From Vulcanimicrobiota bacterium (lineage in GTDB: Bacteria > Vulcanimicrobiota > Vulcanimicrobiia > Vulcanimicrobiales > Vulcanimicrobiaceae): DNA of 64,000 nucleotides. A program made the position numbers and the translations under genes. Where the stretch lies: NCBI GenBank assembly GCA_019235995.1, contig JAFAJV010000078.1:108372-172371 (forward strand), in the 5' to 3' direction. A model generated the notes under the pieces. It saw only the letters and a program-made list of their open reading frames with translations. It was not told where the DNA came from and ran no database searches. Below, piece after piece: positions 2,950-12,722 of this stretch (its first letter is position 1; each line of letters starts with the position of its first letter).

Positions 2950-3792
2950 ATGCGGATAGGGCTGCACGTGCACGTCGCGGGCGGCTATGTAAGGGCCGTC
3001 GAGCACGCAAAGGCGGCAGGGTGCTCCGCGATGCAGGTGTTCTCGTCGAATCCGCGCAGCTATCGCCCCGCGGCGATGGATCGAGCCGCGCTGGAATCCT
3101 TCGCGCAGTTGCGGCGCGACGCCGGGATCGAGCCCTGCGCGATTCACACGCCCTACCTGATCAACCTCGCGAGCGCGGATCCGAAGATCGCGCAAGGCTC
3201 GCTGCGCCTGCTGCAGCACGATCTTGCCGTAGCGGCGCTCGGCCGGATGCGCTTCGTCAACACCCACCTCGGCTCGTATGGCGGGCGCGATCGCGCCGAA
3301 GCGTTCGGCGCGACGTGCCGCGCGCTGGAGACCGCGCTGGGTGCGATCGAACCGGGCGTGTTCCTCGTGCTCGAAAACTCGGCTGGCGCGGGTCAGCTCA
3401 TGGGCGGGACGCTCGAAGAGCTCGGGGCGTTCTCGCGCAGCTTGCCGCATCCGCAGCTGGGATTCTGCATCGACACGGCCCACGCGTGGGCATCGGGCTA
3501 CGAGCTCAACTCGGGTGCCGGCGTCGATCGTTTCGTCGATGAGGCGGAGCGCCGGATCGGCGTCGAGCGCATCATGCTGTTTCACTTCAACGACACGCAG
3601 GTGCCGCTCGGCGCCGGCCGCGACCGGCACTGGCACATCGGCGAGGGCAACATCGGGTTCGAAGGCTTCCGGGCGATCCTCGCTCATCCCGAGCTGCGCG
3701 CGAAAACGGCGATCTTGGAGACGCCGGGTACGGACGAGGACGACCTGCGCAACATGCAGACCATCCTCGCAATTCAAAAGGGAGCCGCTTGA
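2950..3792 (+). CDS. nfo: Endonuclease IV (AP endonuclease family 2)
   Basis: MRIGLHV..., HLGSY, LENSAG, CIDTAHAWASGY and FHFND metal-ligand pattern. Confidence 0.9.
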   Translation: MRIGLHVHVAGGYVRAVEHAKAAGCSAMQVFSSNPRSYRPAAMDRAALESFAQLRRDAGIEPCAIHTPYLINLASADPKIAQGSLRLLQHDLAVAALGRMRFVNTHLGSYGGRDRAEAFGATCRALETALGAIEPGVFLVLENSAGAGQLMGGTLEELGAFSRSLPHPQLGFCIDTAHAWASGYELNSGAGVDRFVDEAERRIGVERIMLFHFNDTQVPLGAGRDRHWHIGEGNIGFEGFRAILAHPELRAKTAILETPGTDEDDLRNMQTILAIQKGAA

Positions 3793-3805
3793 GCTCCCTT
3801 TCTTG

Positions 3806-3943
3806 CTACATCACCCGCAGGTGCGGGAGGCGCAGGTTGGACTCTACGAAGAGTGCGGAATCAGCCCGGTTGATCCTCAGGCGAAGATCGACGTCGCTGA
3901 TGTCCGAGACGAACGGGGCGGTACGAATGGGATCGCGGAACAT
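3806..3943 (-). CDS. Small hypothetical protein (45 aa)
   Basis: ATG preceded by AAGAGG with a 6-nt spacer. Third codon positions are mostly G/C. Lies downstream of a perfect consensus promoter. I recognise no homology. Confidence 0.4.
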   Translation of the reverse strand: MFRDPIRTAPFVSDISDVDLRLRINRADSALFVESNLRLPHLRVM

Positions 3944-3953
3944 TGTGAACCTC

Positions 3954-3982
3954 TTGACGAACGGGTAACCTTCAATCATTAT
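3954..3982 (+). promoter_or_regulatory. Candidate plus-strand promoter TTGACG-N17-CATTAT for the CGNR-dinB operon
   Basis: TTGACG at 3954-3959 and CATTAT at 3977-3982. Its -10 overlaps the -10 of the minus-strand promoter. Confidence 0.35.
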
Positions 3983-4006
3983 ATAGTGGTGACAGTAACT
4001 TGTCAA
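3978..4006 (-). promoter_or_regulatory. Sigma-70 type promoter, perfect consensus TTGACA-N17-TATAAT (minus strand)
   Basis: On the plus strand, tgtcaa at 4001-4006 and attata at 3978-3983, with a 17-nt spacer. Confidence 0.55.
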
Positions 4007-4044
4007 TCGGTTTTGGCGGTGAAAGCGCCGACCGGTCGGACCCC

Positions 4045-4581
4045 GTGAGCGCGGCCGCCGATCTGGCGCCGGGCGGCCTCGAGCTCGTCCGCCGGTTCGT
4101 CAACACGGTCGAGCTGCCAAGCGGGCCCGACGAGCTGGATTCGCTCGAGGGGGCGCGCGCGTGGTGCCTGAGCTACGGGCTAGCCCCGGCGAAGGATGCG
4201 GCACACCTCCAGCTGTTGCGGGGCTTCCGCGAAACACTCCGCGACCTGCTCTTCGCCAACAACGGCGAGGGCGATGCGTCCGATGCCTGGGAGCGCCTGC
4301 GGCCCTTCCTGGCGAGCACGCGTCTGAGCCTCGCCGTCGATCCCCAGCGTGGCCTCGAGCTGTCTCCCGAGGACAAGGGGCCGATCGCCTCGCTGCTGGC
4401 GACCGTCTACGAATCGCAGCTGTTGGGCACGTGGAATCGCCTGCGCGCGTGTCGCAAGTCGAGCTGCCGTTTTGCGTATTACGACCGCACGAAGAACGCG
4501 TCGCGCGCCTGGTGCAGCATGGCGACGTGCGGCAATCAAGCCAAGGCGCAGCGGCGCCGCGAGCGTGAACGCCAGAGATAA
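4045..4581 (+). CDS. CGNR zinc-finger (ABATE-domain) protein
   Basis: C-terminal CRKSSCRFAYYDRTKNASRAWCSMATCGNQAK motif; N-terminal LELVRRFVNT. Start is uncertain (GTG 4045 or TTG 4000). Confidence 0.8.
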   Translation: MSAAADLAPGGLELVRRFVNTVELPSGPDELDSLEGARAWCLSYGLAPAKDAAHLQLLRGFRETLRDLLFANNGEGDASDAWERLRPFLASTRLSLAVDPQRGLELSPEDKGPIASLLATVYESQLLGTWNRLRACRKSSCRFAYYDRTKNASRAWCSMATCGNQAKAQRRRERERQR

Positions 4582-5623
4582 ATTCGTCGCGCACTTCGAC
4601 GTGGACGCGTTTTACGCGAGCGTCGCGGTGCGCGACCACCCGGAGTTGCGCGGCAAACCCGTCGCGGTCGCAGGCAGCAGCCGGCGCGCCGTGGTTCTGA
4701 CGGCCTCGTACGAGGCGCGTCCCTACGGCGTGCGCTCCGCGGTTCCGCTGTACAAGGCGCGCATGGCCTGCCCCGACCTGATCGTCGTTCCGCCCGACAT
4801 GCAGAAGTATCGCGCGATCTCGCGCGAGATCTTCGAGATCTTCGAGCGTGACGGGCGAACCGTCGAAGGCATGTCGATGGACGAGGCCTTCGTTGCCGTC
4901 GAGGCCGCGACGCTGGACGAAGCGCGCGAGAGCGCGGCGCAGATTCGCCGCGAGATCTTCGCGTGCACGCGGCTCACGGTCAGCGCCGGGGTCGCGAGCG
5001 GAAAGATGATCGCCAAGATCGCATCCGACTCGTGCAAGCCGGACGGCCTGCTCGCGATCGCGCCGGGCGACGAGGCCGCGTTCCTCGCGCCGCTGCCCGT
5101 CGGAAGACTCTGGGGGATCGGTCCGAAGATGCAGGCGCGCCTCGCAGTCTTCGGGATCGCGACGATCGGCGAGCTCGCCGCCCTCGACGACGCGCGCATG
5201 CGCGAGCTGTTCGGCTCGTGGTGGCGCGAGGCGCGCGAGCTCGCCCATGGCATCGACCGGCGTCCGGTCGAGGCGGAGCGCGAGACGAAATCGATCTCGA
5301 CTGAGGAGACGTTTGAGTACGACGTGAGCGACGAACGTCAACTCGTCGGCGTGCTGCGCGCACAGGCGCTGGAGTTGGCCGAGGCGCTCGAGCGCGCGCA
5401 CACCGTCTGCGCGACCGTCGGGGTCAAGGTCCGGCGCGCGGACTTTACGGTCGTCGGCCGCCAGGCGCACCTGAGCGAGCCGACGCGCGAGGCGCGCCGC
5501 ATCTTCCGCACCGCGGTGCATTGTCTGCGCCGCGTCGAGCTGCAGGGTGCTCCGGTGCGTCTGCTCGGGACGCGCGTCGCCTCGCTCGTGGAAGGCGACG
5601 CGCGCCAGACGAGCCTCTTTTAG
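4565..5623 (+). CDS. dinB: DNA polymerase IV (Y-family)
   Basis: HFDVDAFYASVAVRD, MSMDEAF and ASGKMIAKIASD motifs. GTG start chosen a few residues before the conserved N-terminus. The longer ORF from 4349 is an upstream extension inside the CGNR gene. Confidence 0.9.
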   Translation: MNARDKFVAHFDVDAFYASVAVRDHPELRGKPVAVAGSSRRAVVLTASYEARPYGVRSAVPLYKARMACPDLIVVPPDMQKYRAISREIFEIFERDGRTVEGMSMDEAFVAVEAATLDEARESAAQIRREIFACTRLTVSAGVASGKMIAKIASDSCKPDGLLAIAPGDEAAFLAPLPVGRLWGIGPKMQARLAVFGIATIGELAALDDARMRELFGSWWREARELAHGIDRRPVEAERETKSISTEETFEYDVSDERQLVGVLRAQALELAEALERAHTVCATVGVKVRRADFTVVGRQAHLSEPTREARRIFRTAVHCLRRVELQGAPVRLLGTRVASLVEGDARQTSLF

Positions 5624-5625
5624 AA

Positions 5626-7248
5626 ATGGAACGCGCCGTGGAGTATGGGCCGGTGCCGTTGCTGCTCGGCGTCGTAGGCCATCGCCGCCTGCCTGAGCCC
5701 GCCGACGATCTGCGTCGCGTCGTGCGCGGGCTGCTCGATGGTTTTCGCTCGCGCTATCCATCGACGCCGATCGCGGTGCTGTCGTCGCTCGCGGAAGGCG
5801 CCGATCGGCTCGTGGCGAGCGAGGCGCTCGACGCGGGCTTCTCGCTCGTGGTGCCGCTGCCGATGCGACGCGAAGAATACGAAAGAGACTTCGTCACGCC
5901 GGAGTCGCTCGCGGAGTTCCGCAGCCTGCTCGACCGCGCCGTCGCGGCGTTCGTCGTGCCCGCCGAGGCGCACGAGATTCGCGCCGACCGGCGCATGCTC
6001 TACGCGAATTGCGGCGCGTATATCGCTCGGCGCTCCTTCGAGCTGATCGCGCTCTGGGACGGAAAGGAGTCATCGAAAGTCGGCGGCACGGCGGAGACCG
6101 TCAGGTTCCGCCTCGAGGGGATTCCGCCGCCGTTCGTGCCCGAGGAGCGTGCGTACGACCCGTCGCTGTGCGGGCCGGTCATCGCGGTGCTAACGCCGCG
6201 GGGACCGGCGGCAACCGCCAGCGCGCCGCATCCGGTGACCGTGTTATACCCCCGGTCGGCGCTCCTCGATCCGGCGACCGCATTCGAGCGCGCGAAGTAC
6301 GATCTCGACACCTTCAATCGCGACGCGACGCGCGGGCCGTTCGCGAGCCGCGTCCGCGGGCTCACGCTACGGCGGCAGACCGAGGGCCTCGCCAACGGCT
6401 ATCAGCGCCTCACGGCTCGCTCGCTGTTCGCGATCTCCGGACTGGTCTTCATGGCGGTCGTCGCGTTCAACGCTTACACGATCTTCCCGAGCCATCCGGT
6501 CGCGCTGCTCGCAGCGTATGCGTTCTTCACCGCGGCGGCGTTCGTGGCATATCTGTTCGCGCGCCGCGGCGAGTGGCAGCTGCGCTATCAAGACTATCGC
6601 GCGCTCGAGCAGACGCTGCGCACGTGGGAATACTGGCGCCTCGCAGGCATCGAGCGCTCCGTGGCGGCACGCTTTGCAGAGACGGAGCGCACGAAGGTCG
6701 ACTGGGTGGCCGTTGCGCTCAAAGCCGTCACGGAGCCGTTCGAGCCGGACGCCCCCTCGGCGCACCGCGCCTCTGCGGAGGACCTCAAGGCGGTCTACCA
6801 GGACTGGATCGTCGACCAGCAGCGGTACTTCACGCGAGTTGCCGGGCGCCGCGAACGGCGGCGCGAGCGCATCGCATCGCGAGTGGTGACGACGTGCGTC
6901 GCGCTCTCGATCGCGTTTACCATCGCGTCCTCGTGGCGTTTCTTCGGTGGGGTTGCCAACGCGGTGCTGTTCGGAGCGACCCTGTTCGCCGTCGCGGCGG
7001 CGCTCGTGCACAACTTCGGCGACAAGCGCGGCTGGAGCGAGCACGCGCGGCACTACGAGCTCATGGCCGCTCTGTTCGGCTACGCCGCGAATCGCATCGC
7101 GCCGCTGTTGGAGAACCCCGGGCTCGAGCCGGCAGACGCCGCAAAAGCACGGGCGATCCTCATTTCGCTGGGCGACGAAGCGATCCGCGAAGACGTCGCA
7201 TGGCTGAACCTGCACCGCTCGCGCCCCGTGAACGTGCCGCGCGTGTGA
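5626..7248 (+). CDS. SLOG-like nucleotide-binding domain fused to four TM helices (two SLATT-like 2TM modules)
   Basis: ATG lies 2 nt after the dinB stop. N-terminus: GVVGHRRL, LSSLAEGADRLVASEAL, LVVPLP, LWDGKESSKVGGTAETV. C-terminus: TM pairs SLFAISGLVFMAVVAF/VALLAAYAFFTAAAFVAYLF and VVTTCVALSIAFTIASSW/AVLFGATLFAVAAALV. Each pair is followed by an R/Y/W-rich helix. Confidence 0.7.
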   Translation: MERAVEYGPVPLLLGVVGHRRLPEPADDLRRVVRGLLDGFRSRYPSTPIAVLSSLAEGADRLVASEALDAGFSLVVPLPMRREEYERDFVTPESLAEFRSLLDRAVAAFVVPAEAHEIRADRRMLYANCGAYIARRSFELIALWDGKESSKVGGTAETVRFRLEGIPPPFVPEERAYDPSLCGPVIAVLTPRGPAATASAPHPVTVLYPRSALLDPATAFERAKYDLDTFNRDATRGPFASRVRGLTLRRQTEGLANGYQRLTARSLFAISGLVFMAVVAFNAYTIFPSHPVALLAAYAFFTAAAFVAYLFARRGEWQLRYQDYRALEQTLRTWEYWRLAGIERSVAARFAETERTKVDWVAVALKAVTEPFEPDAPSAHRASAEDLKAVYQDWIVDQQRYFTRVAGRRERRRERIASRVVTTCVALSIAFTIASSWRFFGGVANAVLFGATLFAVAAALVHNFGDKRGWSEHARHYELMAALFGYAANRIAPLLENPGLEPADAAKARAILISLGDEAIREDVAWLNLHRSRPVNVPRV

Positions 7249-7251
7249 TGC

Positions 7252-8379
7252 TCAGCGTTCGAGCACCCGTACTTCATTGTCGTTGTCGTCGTTGAAGTAG
7301 ACTTTCGTATCGGCGGCGCTCGTGCCGGTGGCGACGATGCCGAACAGCGCTCCGGCGGTCCCCGTGTCGACGTTGCGTACGTCGAGCACCTTGCCCGCCG
7401 CAGACAGCTCGATCAGCAGATTCTTCCCGTTGGGATCGAGCGTGTTGCCGACGACGAGGTTGCCGTTGGGGAGCAATGCGGTGCTGATGGGCCCGTTGAG
7501 CGGACTGCCCGCGAGGACGACCCGCGCGTCCTTGGCCGACGGTCCGCCGAACTTCATGCCGTCGCCTCTGGCGGTAACACCGCCCGCGGGGATCTTCGTC
7601 ACGTCCTTGAACGCGACGACCGTGTTGTTCTGGCCGTCCGCGAAGTAGAGCGTGTCGAGGTTGGGGTCGTAGGCGAGTCCGGACGGCGCCAGAGCGGTTC
7701 CAGGCTTGCCGTGGTTCACCGGAAACCCGGTGGCGATCACGTCGTACGTGAATTTCGACCCGAGATTGATGCGCACGATGGTGCCCGTGCGTGCGTTCGT
7801 CTCGTAGAATGCCGGCGGGCCCTTCTTGGGCGCTGCGAAAATCTGTCCCCACGGCTGAGCGAATGGTTTGCCGGATATGTTGGTGACGAGCTTGCCGTTG
7901 ACGTCGAGCACCGGATTGTCGTCGGCGACCATCGAGGCCGCCCAAATGGTGTCGTCGCTGCCGAGCGCGAGCGCGTCGCACCCGAAGAGCGTTTTGTCCG
8001 AGCTGACGTGCAGCGGCTTCGATCCCGGTGCCGGATGGAGCGCCACGATCGAGCGGCCCGTTCCCTGGACGTTGGATTTCGCGTTGAAGTTGCAAACGAC
8101 GAGATCGCCGGCGGTGAACTTGCCGGCGGTGACCGGCGCGACGGTCAGCCCGTAGGGATTCTGAGCGCCGTTTGCCGGATCGACCGTGGAACCAATGACT
8201 TCTTGTTTGCGCAGCTGCTTCAGGATTGAAACGCCGCCCGCGCCGGCGTCCGCCGGCACGGCGCGCGACATCGCCTGCGGCAATGCCGCGGACGTTCCGC
8301 CGCCGGGACTGCAGCCGCTCGCGACCAACGTCGCGCCAAGCGCCGTGACGAATACATGCGTAGCTTTCATTCGACGCAC
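7252..8379 (-). CDS. Secreted lipoprotein, beta-propeller-like repeats
   Basis: Lipobox LVASGC. Repetitive G/N/D-rich beta-strand pattern. Start is either GTG 8379 or ATG 8370. Confidence 0.65.
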   Translation of the reverse strand: MRRMKATHVFVTALGATLVASGCSPGGGTSAALPQAMSRAVPADAGAGGVSILKQLRKQEVIGSTVDPANGAQNPYGLTVAPVTAGKFTAGDLVVCNFNAKSNVQGTGRSIVALHPAPGSKPLHVSSDKTLFGCDALALGSDDTIWAASMVADDNPVLDVNGKLVTNISGKPFAQPWGQIFAAPKKGPPAFYETNARTGTIVRINLGSKFTYDVIATGFPVNHGKPGTALAPSGLAYDPNLDTLYFADGQNNTVVAFKDVTKIPAGGVTARGDGMKFGGPSAKDARVVLAGSPLNGPISTALLPNGNLVVGNTLDPNGKNLLIELSAAGKVLDVRNVDTGTAGALFGIVATGTSAADTKVYFNDDNDNEVRVLER

Positions 8380-8431: not shown

Positions 8432-9391
8432 TCAGATGTGATCGGTCGGCCAGGAGAAGTCCGCGTTCGAGTTGCACGAAAGCTTTTCGATCAGCCGCTC
8501 GCCATCGCCGCTCAACGGAGCCATCATGAGCGTCGCCGTCTTGCGATGCCGCGTCGTGCCCTTCGGCAGCGTGTGCCGTGCGCCGTCGGGCGGCAGCCAT
8601 CCGGCAACCCGGCGCAGATCGCCGGCGGCGGCGCGTAGCAGAGAGGGAAGCATCGCGGCTCCGGAATCGTCGGAGAAGCCGAACTCGTCGTACACGTACG
8701 TATCGCGTTCCGGAACGCGCACGCCGAGCACGTAGGCGCGCAGCGTGCGTCCCAGTCTCACGCCGATATTCGTCGCATGCCCGGCGGAGTGTTCGGAGAC
8801 ATGCGAAGCGCGCGTCGCTATCCAGTGCCACACCGCCTCGTCGCGGACGAACGCCGCGGCGCGGCGCGAGTCGGTGCGCTCGAAGCAGCGCCGTACGGCG
8901 GCCCAGTCGCGGGCGCCGAGCGGGGCGACCTGCAGCCGCTGGGATGGCAAGGCGTCCGCGCGCAGCGTCAAGTTGCGGGACGGCAGCGCGCGAAATCCGA
9001 GGGCTGCGTAGAATTGCGGCCTGATGTCTGAAAACAAATACGCGACGTCGTAACCGCCGCACCGCGCCGCGTCGAGCGCCGACGCCACCATGAAGCTCGC
9101 ATAGCCGCGGCCGCGTAGCTCGTCCGGAGTGAAGACTGCGCCGAAGCCGATCGCACCCAGGCGGCGCGCTCCGTCGCGAAGATCGCGTTCGTAGCGCTTG
9201 AAGGACGCCAGAAGTCGGCCCCCGTCGTAGAGGCCCACGGTGCGGTAGCGGCGTCGTCCATACGCGCTATTGGCGAGCTCGATCGTCTGCGCGACGTACT
9301 GGTCGAAGCTGCGGCGTCCCGCCCACAGCGCCGCCGTGTGCGGAAGCACGTCGCGCGCGTAGGCGTTCGCGGAGATCGTTCGGAGCTTCAT
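8432..9391 (-). CDS. GNAT family N-acetyltransferase (two-domain, Eis-like)
   Basis: Acetyl-CoA motif ELRGRGYASFMVASAL. ATGA overlap with the stop of the upstream helicase gene. The 732-aa ORF is an artefactual extension. Confidence 0.8.
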   Translation of the reverse strand: MKLRTISANAYARDVLPHTAALWAGRRSFDQYVAQTIELANSAYGRRRYRTVGLYDGGRLLASFKRYERDLRDGARRLGAIGFGAVFTPDELRGRGYASFMVASALDAARCGGYDVAYLFSDIRPQFYAALGFRALPSRNLTLRADALPSQRLQVAPLGARDWAAVRRCFERTDSRRAAAFVRDEAVWHWIATRASHVSEHSAGHATNIGVRLGRTLRAYVLGVRVPERDTYVYDEFGFSDDSGAAMLPSLLRAAAGDLRRVAGWLPPDGARHTLPKGTTRHRKTATLMMAPLSGDGERLIEKLSCNSNADFSWPTDHI

Positions 9392-11457
9392 CGCCGAAGC
9401 TCTTCGAGAAACTCCGGAGCGGTAACGCCCTTGGTCGGAGCGCCGGACGCCGTGATCAAGACGCTGTCGCTGGCGCGGCGCAGCGCATAATTGAAGGCGC
9501 GGCGCTCGGCGTTGTTGTACCGCCGAGTCGCCTTCGATGCGAACATGTAGTAGCTGAACTTGGCGGTCCGCGACGCGCGCGCGGCGCCCGAGTTCTCTTT
9601 CGGAACGACGCCTAGCCGGGGGCTGAAGAGAAACGACTCCGGCGAGTGCCAGAGCGGAAACGAGCCGGGGCGAACGTTGCCGACGACGACCCGCTCGAAG
9701 TGCATTCCACGTGCCGCCTCGACGCTGAGCAGCCGCACGAAATCCGCATCGCCGTCCGGGGGCGCGCACCCCTCCAGGTCGCTCGCCATGCGTTGCTCGG
9801 CGTAGTGCAGCACCTCGCCGAGATTCGCGCAGGGGCTGCGCACGATGAACTCGTTCAGTCGCGCGAGCAGACGGCGCAGCACGGCCTGCTGCGCCGCGGC
9901 GGCCGGCGAACCCGCGTCGCCTTCCCGAGCGAGGCCTTCGCGCCACACAGCGCGCGCGAACGCCTCGAACGGCTCGCGGTCCGCTCGCCTCACCCACTCC
10001 TCGCGCAGCCGGCGAAAGCTCCGTATGCGCGCGCGGGCCTCCGCACTCAGCGCGTCGTCCCGCTCGCCGCGTATCACGTTCCATCCGAGCCGCAGGTCGC
10101 GCTTGGCATCCCATCGACCCGGGCGTACCGTCGGCGCGGGTTCTTCTTCGAACGTGAAGAGCTGCCGCTGGGGATCTGCCGGCTCGCCGCAGAGCGTCGC
10201 GAGCGACGCGTCGGAGAGTCCCAGCGCGGGGTTGGACAGCGTGCGCAGCAGCCAGTCGTGACGGAACGGGTCGTGAACGTTCCAGAGTAAGGCGAGCGCA
10301 TCGAGCACCCGGCGATCCTCGAAGATATTCGCGTCGCCGCTCACGATCGCCGGCACGCCCCGGTCGAGCAGCGCGGCCTCGTAGACCTGCACGTTGCGCA
10401 CCGAGCGGAAGAGCACGGCGACGTGCTCCGGTGCGATGCCGTCGGCGAGCCAGCCCGCGACGCGTTCTGCGATCAGCTGCGCCTCCTCGAACTGCGTCGG
10501 GAGCCGCGCGCAATCCAATTTCGCGAGGCGATCCGGCCGGCGCAGCTCGACGCGCGTCGCGGCGCGCGCGAACGTAGCCTCCGGCTGCGTCATGCGGACG
10601 AGCGAGATCGCCGACGACGGGTCGCCGCACAGCGTCACGCCGGCAAGGGCGTCGCCGAAGATAGCGGCGAGCAGCGCGAGCTGTGCGCCGGTGAGCTCCT
10701 GAGCGTCGTCGATGAAGGCGGTGCGATGGCGCTCGCGCAGGCGTGCCGCCAGGCTCGCGTCGGTCTGCACGCGGCGCGCCGCCGCGGCCGTGGCGTCGCG
10801 TCCCGTCATCTTGCCGGTGGCTTCGGTCAGCTCAACGTATGCCTCGTAGAGTCGCGTGAGGATCTTGGCGAGGTCGAGCTCGCGCCGCCGTTGGCGGTCG
10901 AGCTCCGAGTGCGAGACGTCGAGCGAGTCGTGGTAGGCGCTCTTCGTCGCGGCAAGCAGCGACGGGTCGGCGAAGTTCGGCGGTTTTGCGTAGAAGGCGG
11001 TAGCGCCCGTCTGCGCCGCCGCCAGGAATGCGGCCGGCGTCACGCCCGCATCGCGCAATCTCCGCAGCAGCCGGAACGCCGACGCGAGGAAACGCTCGGG
11101 CGAACGCAGGCCGGGCACCTCTGGGTCGAGTTGATCCTGGGCGAACTCCGGCCATTCGAGCGCGAACAGCGGAGCGCACGCCGCGGCGAAGAGCAGCTCG
11201 GCGGCGACGTCGTCCACGATCGTCACCTCGACACCCTCGGAGCGCAGCAGGTCCGCCGCGTATGCATCGAGTTCGCGCGCCGCGTTCACGTACAGCGGAT
11301 CCGCGCCCGGAAACTCGGCACGCGCGCGCTCTACGCGCTCCGCCAGCGCGGTGCTCTTACCGCTTCCCGGGGCGCCGACGATGGCGACGCACTCGTCGAT
11401 GCTCGTCTCGATCAACTTCCGAAGCGCCGGCCCTCCGGCGGCGGCCTCCGCGCGCAC
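9388..11457 (-). CDS. UvrD/Rep-type superfamily 1 helicase
   Basis: Walker A AIVGAPGSGKST; motif II FIDDAQELT. GTG start proposed about 24 aa before the P-loop. The upstream part of the 952-aa ORF is Arg-rich and lies inside the nuclease gene. Confidence 0.8.
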   Translation of the reverse strand: MRAEAAAGGPALRKLIETSIDECVAIVGAPGSGKSTALAERVERARAEFPGADPLYVNAARELDAYAADLLRSEGVEVTIVDDVAAELLFAAACAPLFALEWPEFAQDQLDPEVPGLRSPERFLASAFRLLRRLRDAGVTPAAFLAAAQTGATAFYAKPPNFADPSLLAATKSAYHDSLDVSHSELDRQRRRELDLAKILTRLYEAYVELTEATGKMTGRDATAAAARRVQTDASLAARLRERHRTAFIDDAQELTGAQLALLAAIFGDALAGVTLCGDPSSAISLVRMTQPEATFARAATRVELRRPDRLAKLDCARLPTQFEEAQLIAERVAGWLADGIAPEHVAVLFRSVRNVQVYEAALLDRGVPAIVSGDANIFEDRRVLDALALLWNVHDPFRHDWLLRTLSNPALGLSDASLATLCGEPADPQRQLFTFEEEPAPTVRPGRWDAKRDLRLGWNVIRGERDDALSAEARARIRSFRRLREEWVRRADREPFEAFARAVWREGLAREGDAGSPAAAAQQAVLRRLLARLNEFIVRSPCANLGEVLHYAEQRMASDLEGCAPPDGDADFVRLLSVEAARGMHFERVVVGNVRPGSFPLWHSPESFLFSPRLGVVPKENSGAARASRTAKFSYYMFASKATRRYNNAERRAFNYALRRASDSVLITASGAPTKGVTAPEFLEELRR

Positions 11458-12722
11458 GCCGTCGCATAGTTGCAGAAGGCGCAGGCCGCGGGATCGGTCG
11501 CCACCTCGAACGCGCCGACGTCGCCCGACGACAGCCGATCGCTCAGCTCGATCATACGCGTGCGCGAACGCTGTAGCTCCTCGAGGCCGATCGAGCCGCG
11601 CACCGATTTGCCGTTGCGGGATCGTTCCGGCGCGCGCTCGGCGACGTCGAGGACGATCGGTCGCACGTCCAGGAGCGCGTCGCGCAGCGGTATGAGCACG
11701 AGCTTCGTGACGCGGTCGCCGGCGGCGGTGCGCGCCCAGTAATAAAATGGGAGCTGGAAGTCGCGAAAGCGGCGCACCTTGTCGCAATACTCCGCCGCGC
11801 TCATGGCGATGCTCCCCGTCTTGTAGTCGACGACTCCGATCCCGCCCGAGCGCTCGTCGCGGTCGAGACGGTCGATGAAGCCGACGAAGGCGCGCCCCTC
11901 GAGGTCGAGATCGGCGGCAACTTCCCGGCCGAGCACCTCGAAGGGAGCCTCCGTCTCTTGCACGAGCAGCCAGTCGACGTAACGCTGCGCAGTCCGCTGC
12001 GCGCGGCGAACTTGCAGCTCGAACTCGACCGCCGTCTCGAACCCGTCGCGGTTGCGTTCGAAGGCCCAGGTCACGCACTCGCGTATGCGCCGGCGCATCG
12101 CTGCGTCGTCGCGCGCCGACGGACGCGGATAGTCGGCGTGGAAATCCTCGAGCGCGAGGTGCAGCGCGGTGCCGTACGCCGCTGCGGCCGAGCCTGGGTC
12201 TTCGACGGCCGCGCAAGCATAGCGGTAGAACCACTTGCGCGCGCACTCGGCGTACGCATTGAGCGCCGAGGCGCTGAAGTGCCGTTGCCAGCCCTCGACG
12301 CCGGCCCGCGGCTCCGGCGGGGGCGCCTGTGCGAGCTCGATCTGACCGCCGGCAGCCGAGCGCTCATGCGCGTGAAACGCGCGCGCCGCGATCTTGGGCA
12401 GCTCGAAGATCTCTGCGATCAGCGAGTGCAGCCCTTCCTCTTCGACGTCGTGCGGAATCGCGCGGATGCGCCGCGCGCGCCGGGCAAACCGCAGCACCTC
12501 GTCGCGCTCCGCGAGCGGCAGCGCCAACCGGCCGCCGTCGATCGCATCGAGCAGCGCGCCGGTTCGCCGCGCGAGCGTCGCATACGCGGCGCCGACGTCG
12601 TGGCCGACGCCGGAATATGGTGAACGAATGAGGTTGAGCAGGGGTTCCTCTCCGCCGGACCGGTGCCACTGCGCGGCATCGGCGACGAAGGACTGCGGAA
12701 GCGTGGACTCGGGCGGCGCCAC
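11412..12722 (-). CDS. PD-(D/E)XK nuclease, RecB/AddB/Cas4-like with 4-Cys cluster
   Basis: GFIDRLD, VVDYKTGS, QLPFYYWA, an early Cys (AECARKW) and C-terminal CAFCNYATAC. Confidence 0.8.
   Translation of the reverse strand: MAPPESTLPQSFVADAAQWHRSGGEEPLLNLIRSPYSGVGHDVGAAYATLARRTGALLDAIDGGRLALPLAERDEVLRFARRARRIRAIPHDVEEEGLHSLIAEIFELPKIAARAFHAHERSAAGGQIELAQAPPPEPRAGVEGWQRHFSASALNAYAECARKWFYRYACAAVEDPGSAAAAYGTALHLALEDFHADYPRPSARDDAAMRRRIRECVTWAFERNRDGFETAVEFELQVRRAQRTAQRYVDWLLVQETEAPFEVLGREVAADLDLEGRAFVGFIDRLDRDERSGGIGVVDYKTGSIAMSAAEYCDKVRRFRDFQLPFYYWARTAAGDRVTKLVLIPLRDALLDVRPIVLDVAERAPERSRNGKSVRGSIGLEELQRSRTRMIELSDRLSSGDVGAFEVATDPAACAFCNYATACARRPPPEGRRFGS

Follow-up and report, generated by a model that had tools for sequence, protein, structure and literature searches.

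The gene described here lies in a window of 64,000 nucleotides (64 kb; contig JAFAJV010000078.1 of a Vulcanimicrobiota bacterium), directly downstream of dinB, and its 540-residue product is predicted to join an N-terminal SLOG domain to two tandem SLATT membrane modules (Table 1). We consider it on balance likely that this gene supplies the membrane effector of a TIR-based defence module that signals by nucleotides in the manner of Thoeris, and the window copy is probably the orphaned effector of a TIR-NB-ARC-TPR operon. An earlier reading of the DNA from its letters alone (the sequence-only reading) had described a SLOG-SLATT fusion acting as a stand-alone sensor-effector; what is added here is its placement as the effector of a TIR-linked two-gene system, the TIR-NB-ARC-TPR gene of which was probably lost at the window locus.

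TIR linkage and the missing partner gene

Neighbouring genes were screened at 83 non-redundant family loci. A TIR-like open reading frame (ORF) is found no more than 500 nt from the effector gene at 35 of these loci, and at 28 of the 61 that have at least 3 kb of flanking sequence on each side. The expectation from the distal flanks (5 TIR ORFs in 717 kb) is about 2.8% per locus, giving a roughly 15-fold excess over background and a binomial P of ~3e-32. In Pfam searches, 36 of 37 adjacent TIR-like ORFs matched TIR_2 (best E 6e-39), nine ThsB_TIR, and eight NB-ARC/AAA_16 plus TPR; the adjacent ORFs also matched PADLOC defence TIR models, ThsB among them. Their alignment contains a near-invariant Glu (E83 of A3), which by its position is taken as the putative TIR catalytic Glu.

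Most clades of a neighbour-joining effector tree include TIR-adjacent members, with clade-specific partner architectures: a short TIR protein encoded upstream of the effector in the Proteobacteria clade, a 430-560-aa TIR protein in the Acidobacteriota clade, TIR-NB-ARC-TPR in the window's own clade, and, in a second Eremiobacterota clade, a transmembrane (TM)-TIR protein plus a FecR-TPR gene, both divergent from the effector. The loci of this last clade (L022, L025, L028, L031 and L048, at about 3000-7100) share a three-gene layout and a ~570-aa protein with a C-terminal TIR domain. At L004, with a 48% identical homolog in an unrelated chromosomal position, an 871-aa TIR_2-NB-ARC/AAA_16-TPR gene comes next and overlaps the effector gene by 4 nt. 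Partners of other kinds are DUF4062-NACHT-TPR and class III cyclase proteins; NPHP3-like DUF4062-NACHT-TPR STAND proteins stand in place of TIR at L038 (8732-11854), L040 (3087-6125) and L061 (2414-5818), which are from Kapaibacteria, Ignavibacteria and Binatus. All-vs-all clustering of 1,672 neighbour ORFs yielded no recurrent partner beyond the TIR/STAND/TPR cluster, the remaining clusters being antisense artefacts and local synteny blocks.

The partner expected at the window locus is found in L003, the syntenic locus of ortholog P0003 (84% identical to the window effector), with the gene order nfo, ABATE, dinB, effector, TIR_2-NB-ARC-TPR, a 371-aa convergent gene, GNAT and UvrD. The TIR_2-NB-ARC-TPR gene (2.64 kb, 879 aa) starts with an ATG that overlaps the effector TGA (TGATG), and its 3' end overlaps the convergent gene. 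Gene overlaps of this kind, here and at L004, indicate that effector and TIR gene form an operon. Colinearity between the window and L003 extends as far as ...GTGTGATG, after which the window passes straight into the convergent gene at its 3' end; the 2.64-kb gene is precisely absent, and the 'TGATG' at the effector stop is retained. Neither a TIR hidden Markov model built from the family neighbours, run against a six-frame translation of the full 64 kb (no match at E<=1), nor a tblastn search of the window with the L003 TIR-STAND protein returned a match. The next gene is convergent and follows 3 nt past the stop, in agreement with the claim of the sequence-only reading that no nucleotide generator is adjacent. 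No TIR-STAND protein with the JO190_ tag of this genome was among the named matches listed by a word-indexed search, which, with such a search and a metagenome-assembled genome (MAG), is no proof of absence. The close relatives L006 and L007 are also TIR-less, with other junctions: a spacer of 37 nt in L007 and, in L006, absence of the convergent gene as well.

Comparison of these loci makes a loss of the TIR-NB-ARC-TPR gene in the window more likely than a gain in L003, although parsimony within the four closest genomes alone would favour a single gain. Between L003 and L010, which is more distant, the effectors are 61.7% identical and the TIR-NB-ARC-TPR proteins 59.2% identical over 894 residues; this equal divergence suggests that the TIR-STAND gene was co-inherited from the ancestor of the clade, and so favours loss. 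The same conclusion is favoured by L009, where a TIR-NB-ARC-TPR pseudogene (5521-6950) lies upstream of an intact effector gene, frameshifted over three reading frames and with its central third deleted (residues 335-663 of the L010 protein), and by the deeper Eremiobacterota relatives L004, L011, L012, L014 and L015, all of which retain a TIR-STAND gene immediately downstream. A gain of the TIR gene in L003 is disfavoured by the L003-L010 co-divergence together with the partner decay in L009. The term stand-alone sensor-effector is thus true of the window locus, but probably does not describe the original design, of which L003 keeps the partner.

The effector family is large. A word-indexed search gave 367 homologs. 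When 1.84 billion cluster representatives were searched exhaustively with the family profile, 11,893 matched at E<=1e-3 and 4,392 (50%-identity clusters) still did so at E<=1e-30; with one genome scanned per species, the family loci number at least 568. Their distribution is patchy across more than 10 phyla, with loci in Eremiobacterota, Acidobacteriota, Bacteroidota/Ignavibacteriota, Chloroflexota, Proteobacteria, Planctomycetota, Verrucomicrobiota, Firmicutes and Armatimonadota. One full-length homolog is encoded on the mobilizable 377-kb plasmid pSBC2-4 of Caballeronia sp. SBC2 (L088, 5058-10522), where it is followed by a TIR-domain gene and then by a large WD40-repeat gene; it aligns to the family with an hhalign probability of 99.8% (E 1.8e-27) and carries the RefSeq name 'DUF4231 domain-containing protein'. 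A tblastn search of phages gave no family match. PADLOC v2 has no model for the family, and a single one of the 78 members examined matches a generic 2TM effector model. The patchy phyletic distribution, the plasmid-borne member and the strong TIR linkage bear out the conflict-system context proposed by the sequence-only reading.

Further genes were observed around the family. In L005 (10925-13324) and L018 (11858-14980), CHAT-protease and TPR genes, together with a weak match to nSTAND NTPase5, lie a few kb from the TIR-effector pairs, which suggests defence-island-like surroundings. Eremiobacterota also have STAND-TPR paralogs of L003:7623-9062 (P0156, P0159, P0160, P0162, P0178, P0186 and others) that are 55-62% identical in the NTPase region and differ in the N-terminal domain, the head being TIR, a class III adenylate/guanylate cyclase (PF00211) or a helix-turn-helix domain (PF01381); the signalling heads look as if they had been swapped modularly.

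Domain architecture of the effector

The effector gene is single and intact, as had been read from the sequence. Its ATG at 5626 agrees with the N-termini of homologs, those of close relatives being 540-541 aa long, and an in-frame TTG at 5521 is unnecessary as a start. The protein is 100% identical to the NCBI MAG protein JO190_06950 (Ca. Eremiobacterota bacterium). The seven motifs quoted in the sequence-only reading were all located where it had placed them, four in the SLOG half (GHRRL, residues 18-22; LSSLAEGADRLVASEAL, 52-68; LVVPLP, 74-79; LWDGKESSKVGGTAETV, 143-159) and three in the membrane half (RRGEWQLRYQDYRALEQTLRTWEYW, 313-337; DQQRYFTR, 397-404; GDKRGWSEHARHYELMAALF, 465-484). 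In an alignment of 78 sequences, the invariant or near-invariant columns are G15, G18, H19, R20, S53, L55-D60, P77-P79, W144-G146, G154, T155, D323-A326, W337 and Q398, and all family-invariant residues are kept in the window effector. With the motifs on invariant columns and many full-length homologs at hand, the feature is genuine and no product of chance. An AlphaFold2 model of the full-length protein, computed with the family alignment as input, reached a predicted local distance difference test (pLDDT) score of 92.4 and a predicted TM-score (pTM) of 0.91.

For the N-terminal half, the sequence-only reading had proposed a SLOG-type Rossmann fold, and the predicted structure concurs. A domain-only AlphaFold2 model (pLDDT 90.7) was compared with the PDB using Foldseek, the best match being YpsA (2nx2, E 5.3e-7, TM-scores 0.51/0.61). 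The top 16 PDB matches, each with probability 1.00, comprise YpsA, ShosA, DprA, TM1055, MCP and TT1465; other matches are the N-terminal domains of TRPM and the SLOG domain of BcThsA with 3'cADPR, a cyclic ADP-ribose (cADPR) isomer (7uxs, E 6.5e-3, probability 0.97, 9% identity). The named matches to this model (YpsA, ShosA, DprA, LOG, TRPM and ThsA SLOG) are members of the SLOG superfamily, which is also the only superfamily among the top matches. LOG and DprA folds, with which a model was to be compared according to the sequence-only reading, are both represented, the closest fold being YpsA/DprA. Profile searches, likewise named there as a check, gave a divided answer: the window protein has no Pfam match, but 16 of the 78 homologs weakly match YAcAr (E<=0.01) over their first ~80 residues, all below the gathering score (best ~17 bits, cut-off 28.2). 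A sequence search of the PDB with the family profile returned as its best match a chance ATPase (E 2.2). The conserved loops of the domain read GxxGHR, SxLAEGAD, WDG and GGT; the G15/G18/H19/R20 loop follows the strand formed by residues 12-18, G154/T155 open the helix formed by residues 155-164, and these positions are invariant or at least 90% conserved.

TM helices were called by Kyte-Doolittle hydropathy (19-aa window, threshold 1.6). Hydropathy and the AlphaFold2 model agree on four TM helices arranged 2+2, each pair followed by a further helix, as the sequence-only reading had it. The helix after TM2 (residues 313-339) is conserved and amphipathic with a DYRAL...W motif, and in the second module the helix that precedes the TM pair bears DQxxYF. 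Scanned one by one against Pfam, 42 of the 78 aligned homologs matched DUF4231, 21 SLATT_3 and 10 SLATT_1, with the region of hairpin 1 matching SLATT_3/DUF4231 and that of hairpin 2 matching SLATT_1. Several scores exceed the gathering cut-offs, among them 31.8 bits for SLATT_3 in P0074 (cut-off 26.3), 30.4 bits for DUF4231 in P0108 (cut-off 24.7), both the best for their profiles, and 27.8 bits for SLATT_1 in P0056 (cut-off 26.3); the proposal of two SLATT/DUF4231-type modules is thereby borne out through the homologs. For the TM half, a Foldseek search started from the full-length model returned nothing specific but ABC-transporter/TRPM noise with a root-mean-square deviation (RMSD) >25 Å. 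Beyond the second module, the conserved C-terminal helix has the invariant residues G516, E518, E522, W526 and R531. Matches of the window effector to DUF6232 (E 0.008) and DUF2207_C were rejected as TM-composition noise.

Mechanism, competing explanations and surroundings of the gene

The mechanism proposed for the module is modelled on established Thoeris and CBASS biology (bioRxiv 10.64898/2025.12.03.692087; PMC9503650). Upon infection, the TIR protein would turn NAD+ into an ADP-ribose-derived signal, e.g. an isomer of cADPR; where the partner is a STAND protein, its TPR array would first recognise a target and the protein would oligomerise before the signal is made. The cytoplasmic SLOG domain would bind this signal via its conserved loops GxxGHR, SxLAEGAD, WDG and GGT, and binding would make the tandem SLATT helices change conformation or oligomerise, a rearrangement that would permeabilise or depolarise the inner membrane and lead to abortive infection. 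In the genome of the window, the orphan might be triggered by a TIR protein or other nucleotide generator encoded elsewhere, or might be a retained remnant with a selectable function. A broader version, which we put forward tentatively, is that NLR-like TIR-NB-ARC-TPR proteins are signal generators for a dedicated SLOG-2xSLATT effector in a two-component layout, and that orphans are 'listeners' to TIR signals made elsewhere in the cell.

Several points weigh against assigning the gene to a TIR-linked module. TIR domains in STAND proteins are usually seen as NAD+-depleting effectors and not as signal generators. Direct scans of the window effector against Pfam, PADLOC and NCBIfam gave no significant match, and the domains were therefore examined via homologs and structure; their assignment stands on the homologs and the predicted structure, not on a direct profile match. 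The SLOG ligand is not inferable from the structural comparison, given the modest Foldseek TM-scores (0.5-0.6) and the weak match to ThsA SLOG (E 6.5e-3). At 46 of the 83 loci, genes for TIR, DUF4062 or cyclase proteins are lacking within 600 nt, and the Bacteroidota/Ignavibacteriota clade is nearly all TIR-less and solo; many members may thus act without a dedicated generator. Two operons of the putative Thoeris class 'SLOG and 4TM' (from Streptomyces sp. GKU 895 and Ca. Nitrospira nitrosa), likened to the family by their architecture label, gave no defence in E. coli (bioRxiv 10.64898/2025.12.03.692087).

With over half of the loci solo, the most serious rival is an autonomous sensor-effector, the SLOG domain of which would directly sense an infection or stress nucleotide and then open or assemble the SLATT module; candidate ligands would be the signal of another defence system, a phage-made molecule or an NAD+/ADP-ribose breakdown product. 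The solo loci just described fit this explanation, as does the finding that no other neighbour family recurs. Selection on the effector fits as well: the ratio of nonsynonymous to synonymous substitution rates (dN/dS) is 0.165-0.186 at a dS of ~0.36-0.62 in six pairwise comparisons, including that of TIR-less L006 with TIR-less L007, and the TIR-less orthologs (window, L006, L007) are intact at a dN/dS of ~0.17-0.18. Judged by these values, the orphan effector is under purifying selection. We nevertheless regard autonomy as doubtful: the excess of TIR neighbours is spread over the effector tree; the TIR-STAND gene of the window's clade has diverged in step with the effector and is now decaying in one case and lost in others, which makes the solo status a derived one; and a partner may be encoded elsewhere in the genome, beyond the 64-kb window.

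Considerably less probable is a housekeeping membrane protein, i.e. a nucleotide-regulated channel or a YpsA-like regulator of the cell cycle or envelope, possibly co-expressed with dinB. The closest structural match, YpsA, is a SLOG protein that the literature relates to cell division (PMC6459960), and the effector gene is under purifying selection. The coupling to dinB is also tight: 2 nt separate the dinB stop from the effector ATG (window 5621-5628), the arrangement is the same in the 84% identical ortholog (L003, 5998-6003), and no obvious Shine-Dalgarno sequence precedes the effector ATG; the spacing and the lack of such a sequence suggest co-transcription and translational coupling with dinB, a translesion polymerase gene of the SOS type. 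Upstream of dinB lie nfo and an ABATE/zf-CGNR regulator, and this nfo-ABATE-dinB neighbourhood is conserved in four related genomes. The conservation, however, stops beyond relatives of ~80% identity, with L001 (64%) and all others differing, and the patchy occurrence in more than 10 phyla, the plasmid-borne copy and the recurrence of conflict-type neighbours (TIR, STAND, TPR, CHAT, WD40) speak against a housekeeping role.

A catalytic SLOG domain, either a membrane-anchored LOG-like N-glycosidase or an enzyme that processes ADP-ribose derivatives and so makes or destroys the signal, we hold to be marginally more improbable still. LOG-family enzymes are among the structural matches, and the GGT-containing loop resembles the LOG motif PGGxGTxxE; the sequence-only reading had compared it with the GGxGTxxE loop. 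That comparison is right for G154 and T155, which are conserved, but loose for the Glu: the loop of the window effector is VGGTAETV, the catalytic motif is absent, and across the family only G154 and T155 of the LOG-like loop are kept, E157 being variable. As the LOG Glu is unconserved in the family, the domain resembles a ligand sensor on the YpsA branch rather than a LOG enzyme, which agrees with the closest fold, and the fusion to tandem SLATT modules suits a sensor-effector design. Least credible is a non-functional, decaying relic of a broken defence operon, which would account for the absent partner and for partner pseudogenisation in a relative, but is at odds with the intact 540-codon frame, the presence of all family-invariant residues and a dN/dS of ~0.17 over a dS of ~0.6, also between TIR-less lineages; a pseudogene reading of the window effector was rejected on these dN/dS values.

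Coordinates of the features are listed in Table 1. The true start of dinB is probably downstream of 4349, as its L003 ortholog has 352 aa. In the intergenic region between nfo and ABATE, the minus strand carries a perfect 12/12 sigma-70 consensus (window 3954-4006; TTGACA-17 nt-TATAAT), in a genome of 65-70% GC; it overlaps a 9/12 site on the plus strand, and shuffled sequences average 0.3 sites over the 4.9 kb scanned. A possible role is that of a divergent or regulated promoter of the ABATE-dinB-effector block. Past the convergent gene, the minus strand encodes a GNAT acetyltransferase and a large UvrD-like helicase, the latter extended at its N-terminus by a long segment (8432-12246). Weak PADLOC GajB-like matches (E 5e-8) were obtained here, and synteny of the pair holds in L003, L006 and L007; the two window genes overlap in their longest ORFs, and their boundaries are provisional.

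Table 1. Features of the effector gene and its immediate neighbours (window coordinates)
Feature	Position	Strand	Basis and remarks
dinB (DNA polymerase IV), co-directional, upstream of the effector	4349..5623	+	Pfam IMS/IMS_C/IMS_HHH, NCBIfam Pol IV
SLOG-2xSLATT effector, complete coding sequence	5626..7248	+	540 aa plus stop, open frame without interruption
N-terminal SLOG (YpsA-like) Rossmannoid domain, aa ~10-210	5653..6255	+	predicted nucleotide-ligand sensor; AlphaFold2 and Foldseek
First SLATT module, aa ~245-340	6358..6645	+	hydropathy; AlphaFold2 helices 248-286, 292-315, 317-339
TM1, aa 262-288	6409..6489	+	hydropathy
TM2, aa 290-312	6493..6561	+	hydropathy
Second SLATT module, aa ~384-495	6775..7110	+	hydropathy; AlphaFold2 helices 384-435, 438-468, 470-495
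TM3, aa 416-434	6871..6927	+	hydropathy
TM4, aa 439-465	6940..7020	+	hydropathy
Conserved C-terminal helix, aa 502-531	7129..7218	+	AlphaFold2 helix 502-531; family motif ELGxEAL.EN.DW..LHR.RP
Junction of the missing TIR-NB-ARC-TPR gene	7246..7254	.	alignment with L003; TGA 7246-7248, 3 nt, stop of the convergent gene
Convergent gene, 375 aa, weak NHL match	7252..8379	-	ortholog of the 371-aa gene past the TIR gene in L003

Relation to known systems and meaning for the family

The closest description is found in a December 2025 preprint from the Sorek laboratory (Yirmiya et al., bioRxiv 10.64898/2025.12.03.692087), which lists 29 putative Thoeris types and, among these, 'SLOG and 4TM' or '4TM SLOG' as a putative effector class with five TIR entries (Tables S1-S2). 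Like the present family, the class combines SLOG with four TM helices beside a TIR gene and is proposed to respond to a TIR signal. The two differ in that its TM part is not named SLATT, that TIRs in Avs/STAND proteins, usually taken to be self-contained NAD+-depleting effectors, were for that reason left out of the census by design (bioRxiv 10.64898/2025.12.03.692087), and that its TIRs are 22-30% identical to those found beside the effector family. With the TIR protein of N. nitrosa as query, homologs of at most 64% identity were obtained, and the one contig inspected (L086) had a UDPGP neighbour and no SLOG-4TM gene. Judged by architecture, membership of the effector family in this class is plausible. 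A TIR gene in the effector's operon, one Thoeris criterion, is found at 35 of the 83 family loci, and is not found in the window.

Each half of the effector has a counterpart in a Thoeris system. The SLOG domain of ThsA (SIR2-SLOG, type I) is the 3'cADPR receptor (bioRxiv 10.64898/2025.12.03.692087), a role that resembles the one proposed here, but the output of ThsA is a SIR2 NADase in place of a membrane module, and the effector SLOG is N-terminal and closer to YpsA/DprA than to ThsA SLOG. ThsH (type VII) is a validated SLATT effector responding to canonical cADPR (bioRxiv 10.64898/2025.12.03.692087). It shares with the SLATT/2TM effectors of CBASS a nucleotide-activated SLATT membrane output, the activators being cADPR and cyclic oligonucleotides, respectively; ThsH, however, is without SLOG and, according to the preprint, would bind cADPR in pockets between its SLATT protomers, whereas the present effector carries SLATT twice in tandem and SLOG as a domain of its own. 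SLATT has been predicted to be a permeability effector regulated by ADP-ribose derivatives, and SLOG domains of the YpsA clade to be cADPR sensors (PMC9503650). The YpsA/YAcAr clade (Pfam DUF1273, PF10686) provides both the best structural match and the weak profile matches to the effector SLOG, although YpsA itself is a soluble, stand-alone protein of ~180 aa tied to cell division in Firmicutes and the effector is a membrane fusion. As an analogy only, plant TNLs and the helper-NLR channel likewise connect an NLR-type TIR sensor via a small molecule to a separate membrane-permeabilising protein; plant EDS1/helper NLRs and SLOG-SLATT proteins share no homology, and a signal output by bacterial TIR-STAND proteins is a proposal. 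The link between SLOG and SLATT is already recorded in the Pfam name of SLATT, 'SMODS and SLOG-associating 2TM effector domain'. The association reportedly originates with Burroughs et al., in NAR in 2015. The combination of a Thoeris-type SLOG sensor with a SLATT output has accordingly been anticipated computationally, and its function is a predicted one.

None of the findings on the effector family contradicts current models of nucleotide-signalling defence, and the window locus is to be seen as an orphaned effector gene downstream of dinB and not as a complete defence system. If the reading as a TIR-linked effector is true, a very large unannotated family, the members of which are now labelled 'hypothetical' or 'DUF4231' in databases, would become a recognisable class of TIR-signal-gated membrane effectors, and this class would pair a receptor of the type I Thoeris kind, SLOG, with an output of the type VII kind, SLATT. 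It raises the questions of whether TIR domains in STAND/NLR-like proteins signal to a separate effector or simply burn NAD+, and of why selection keeps effectors after their generator is lost, as in the window and in much of the Bacteroidota/Ignavibacteriota clade.

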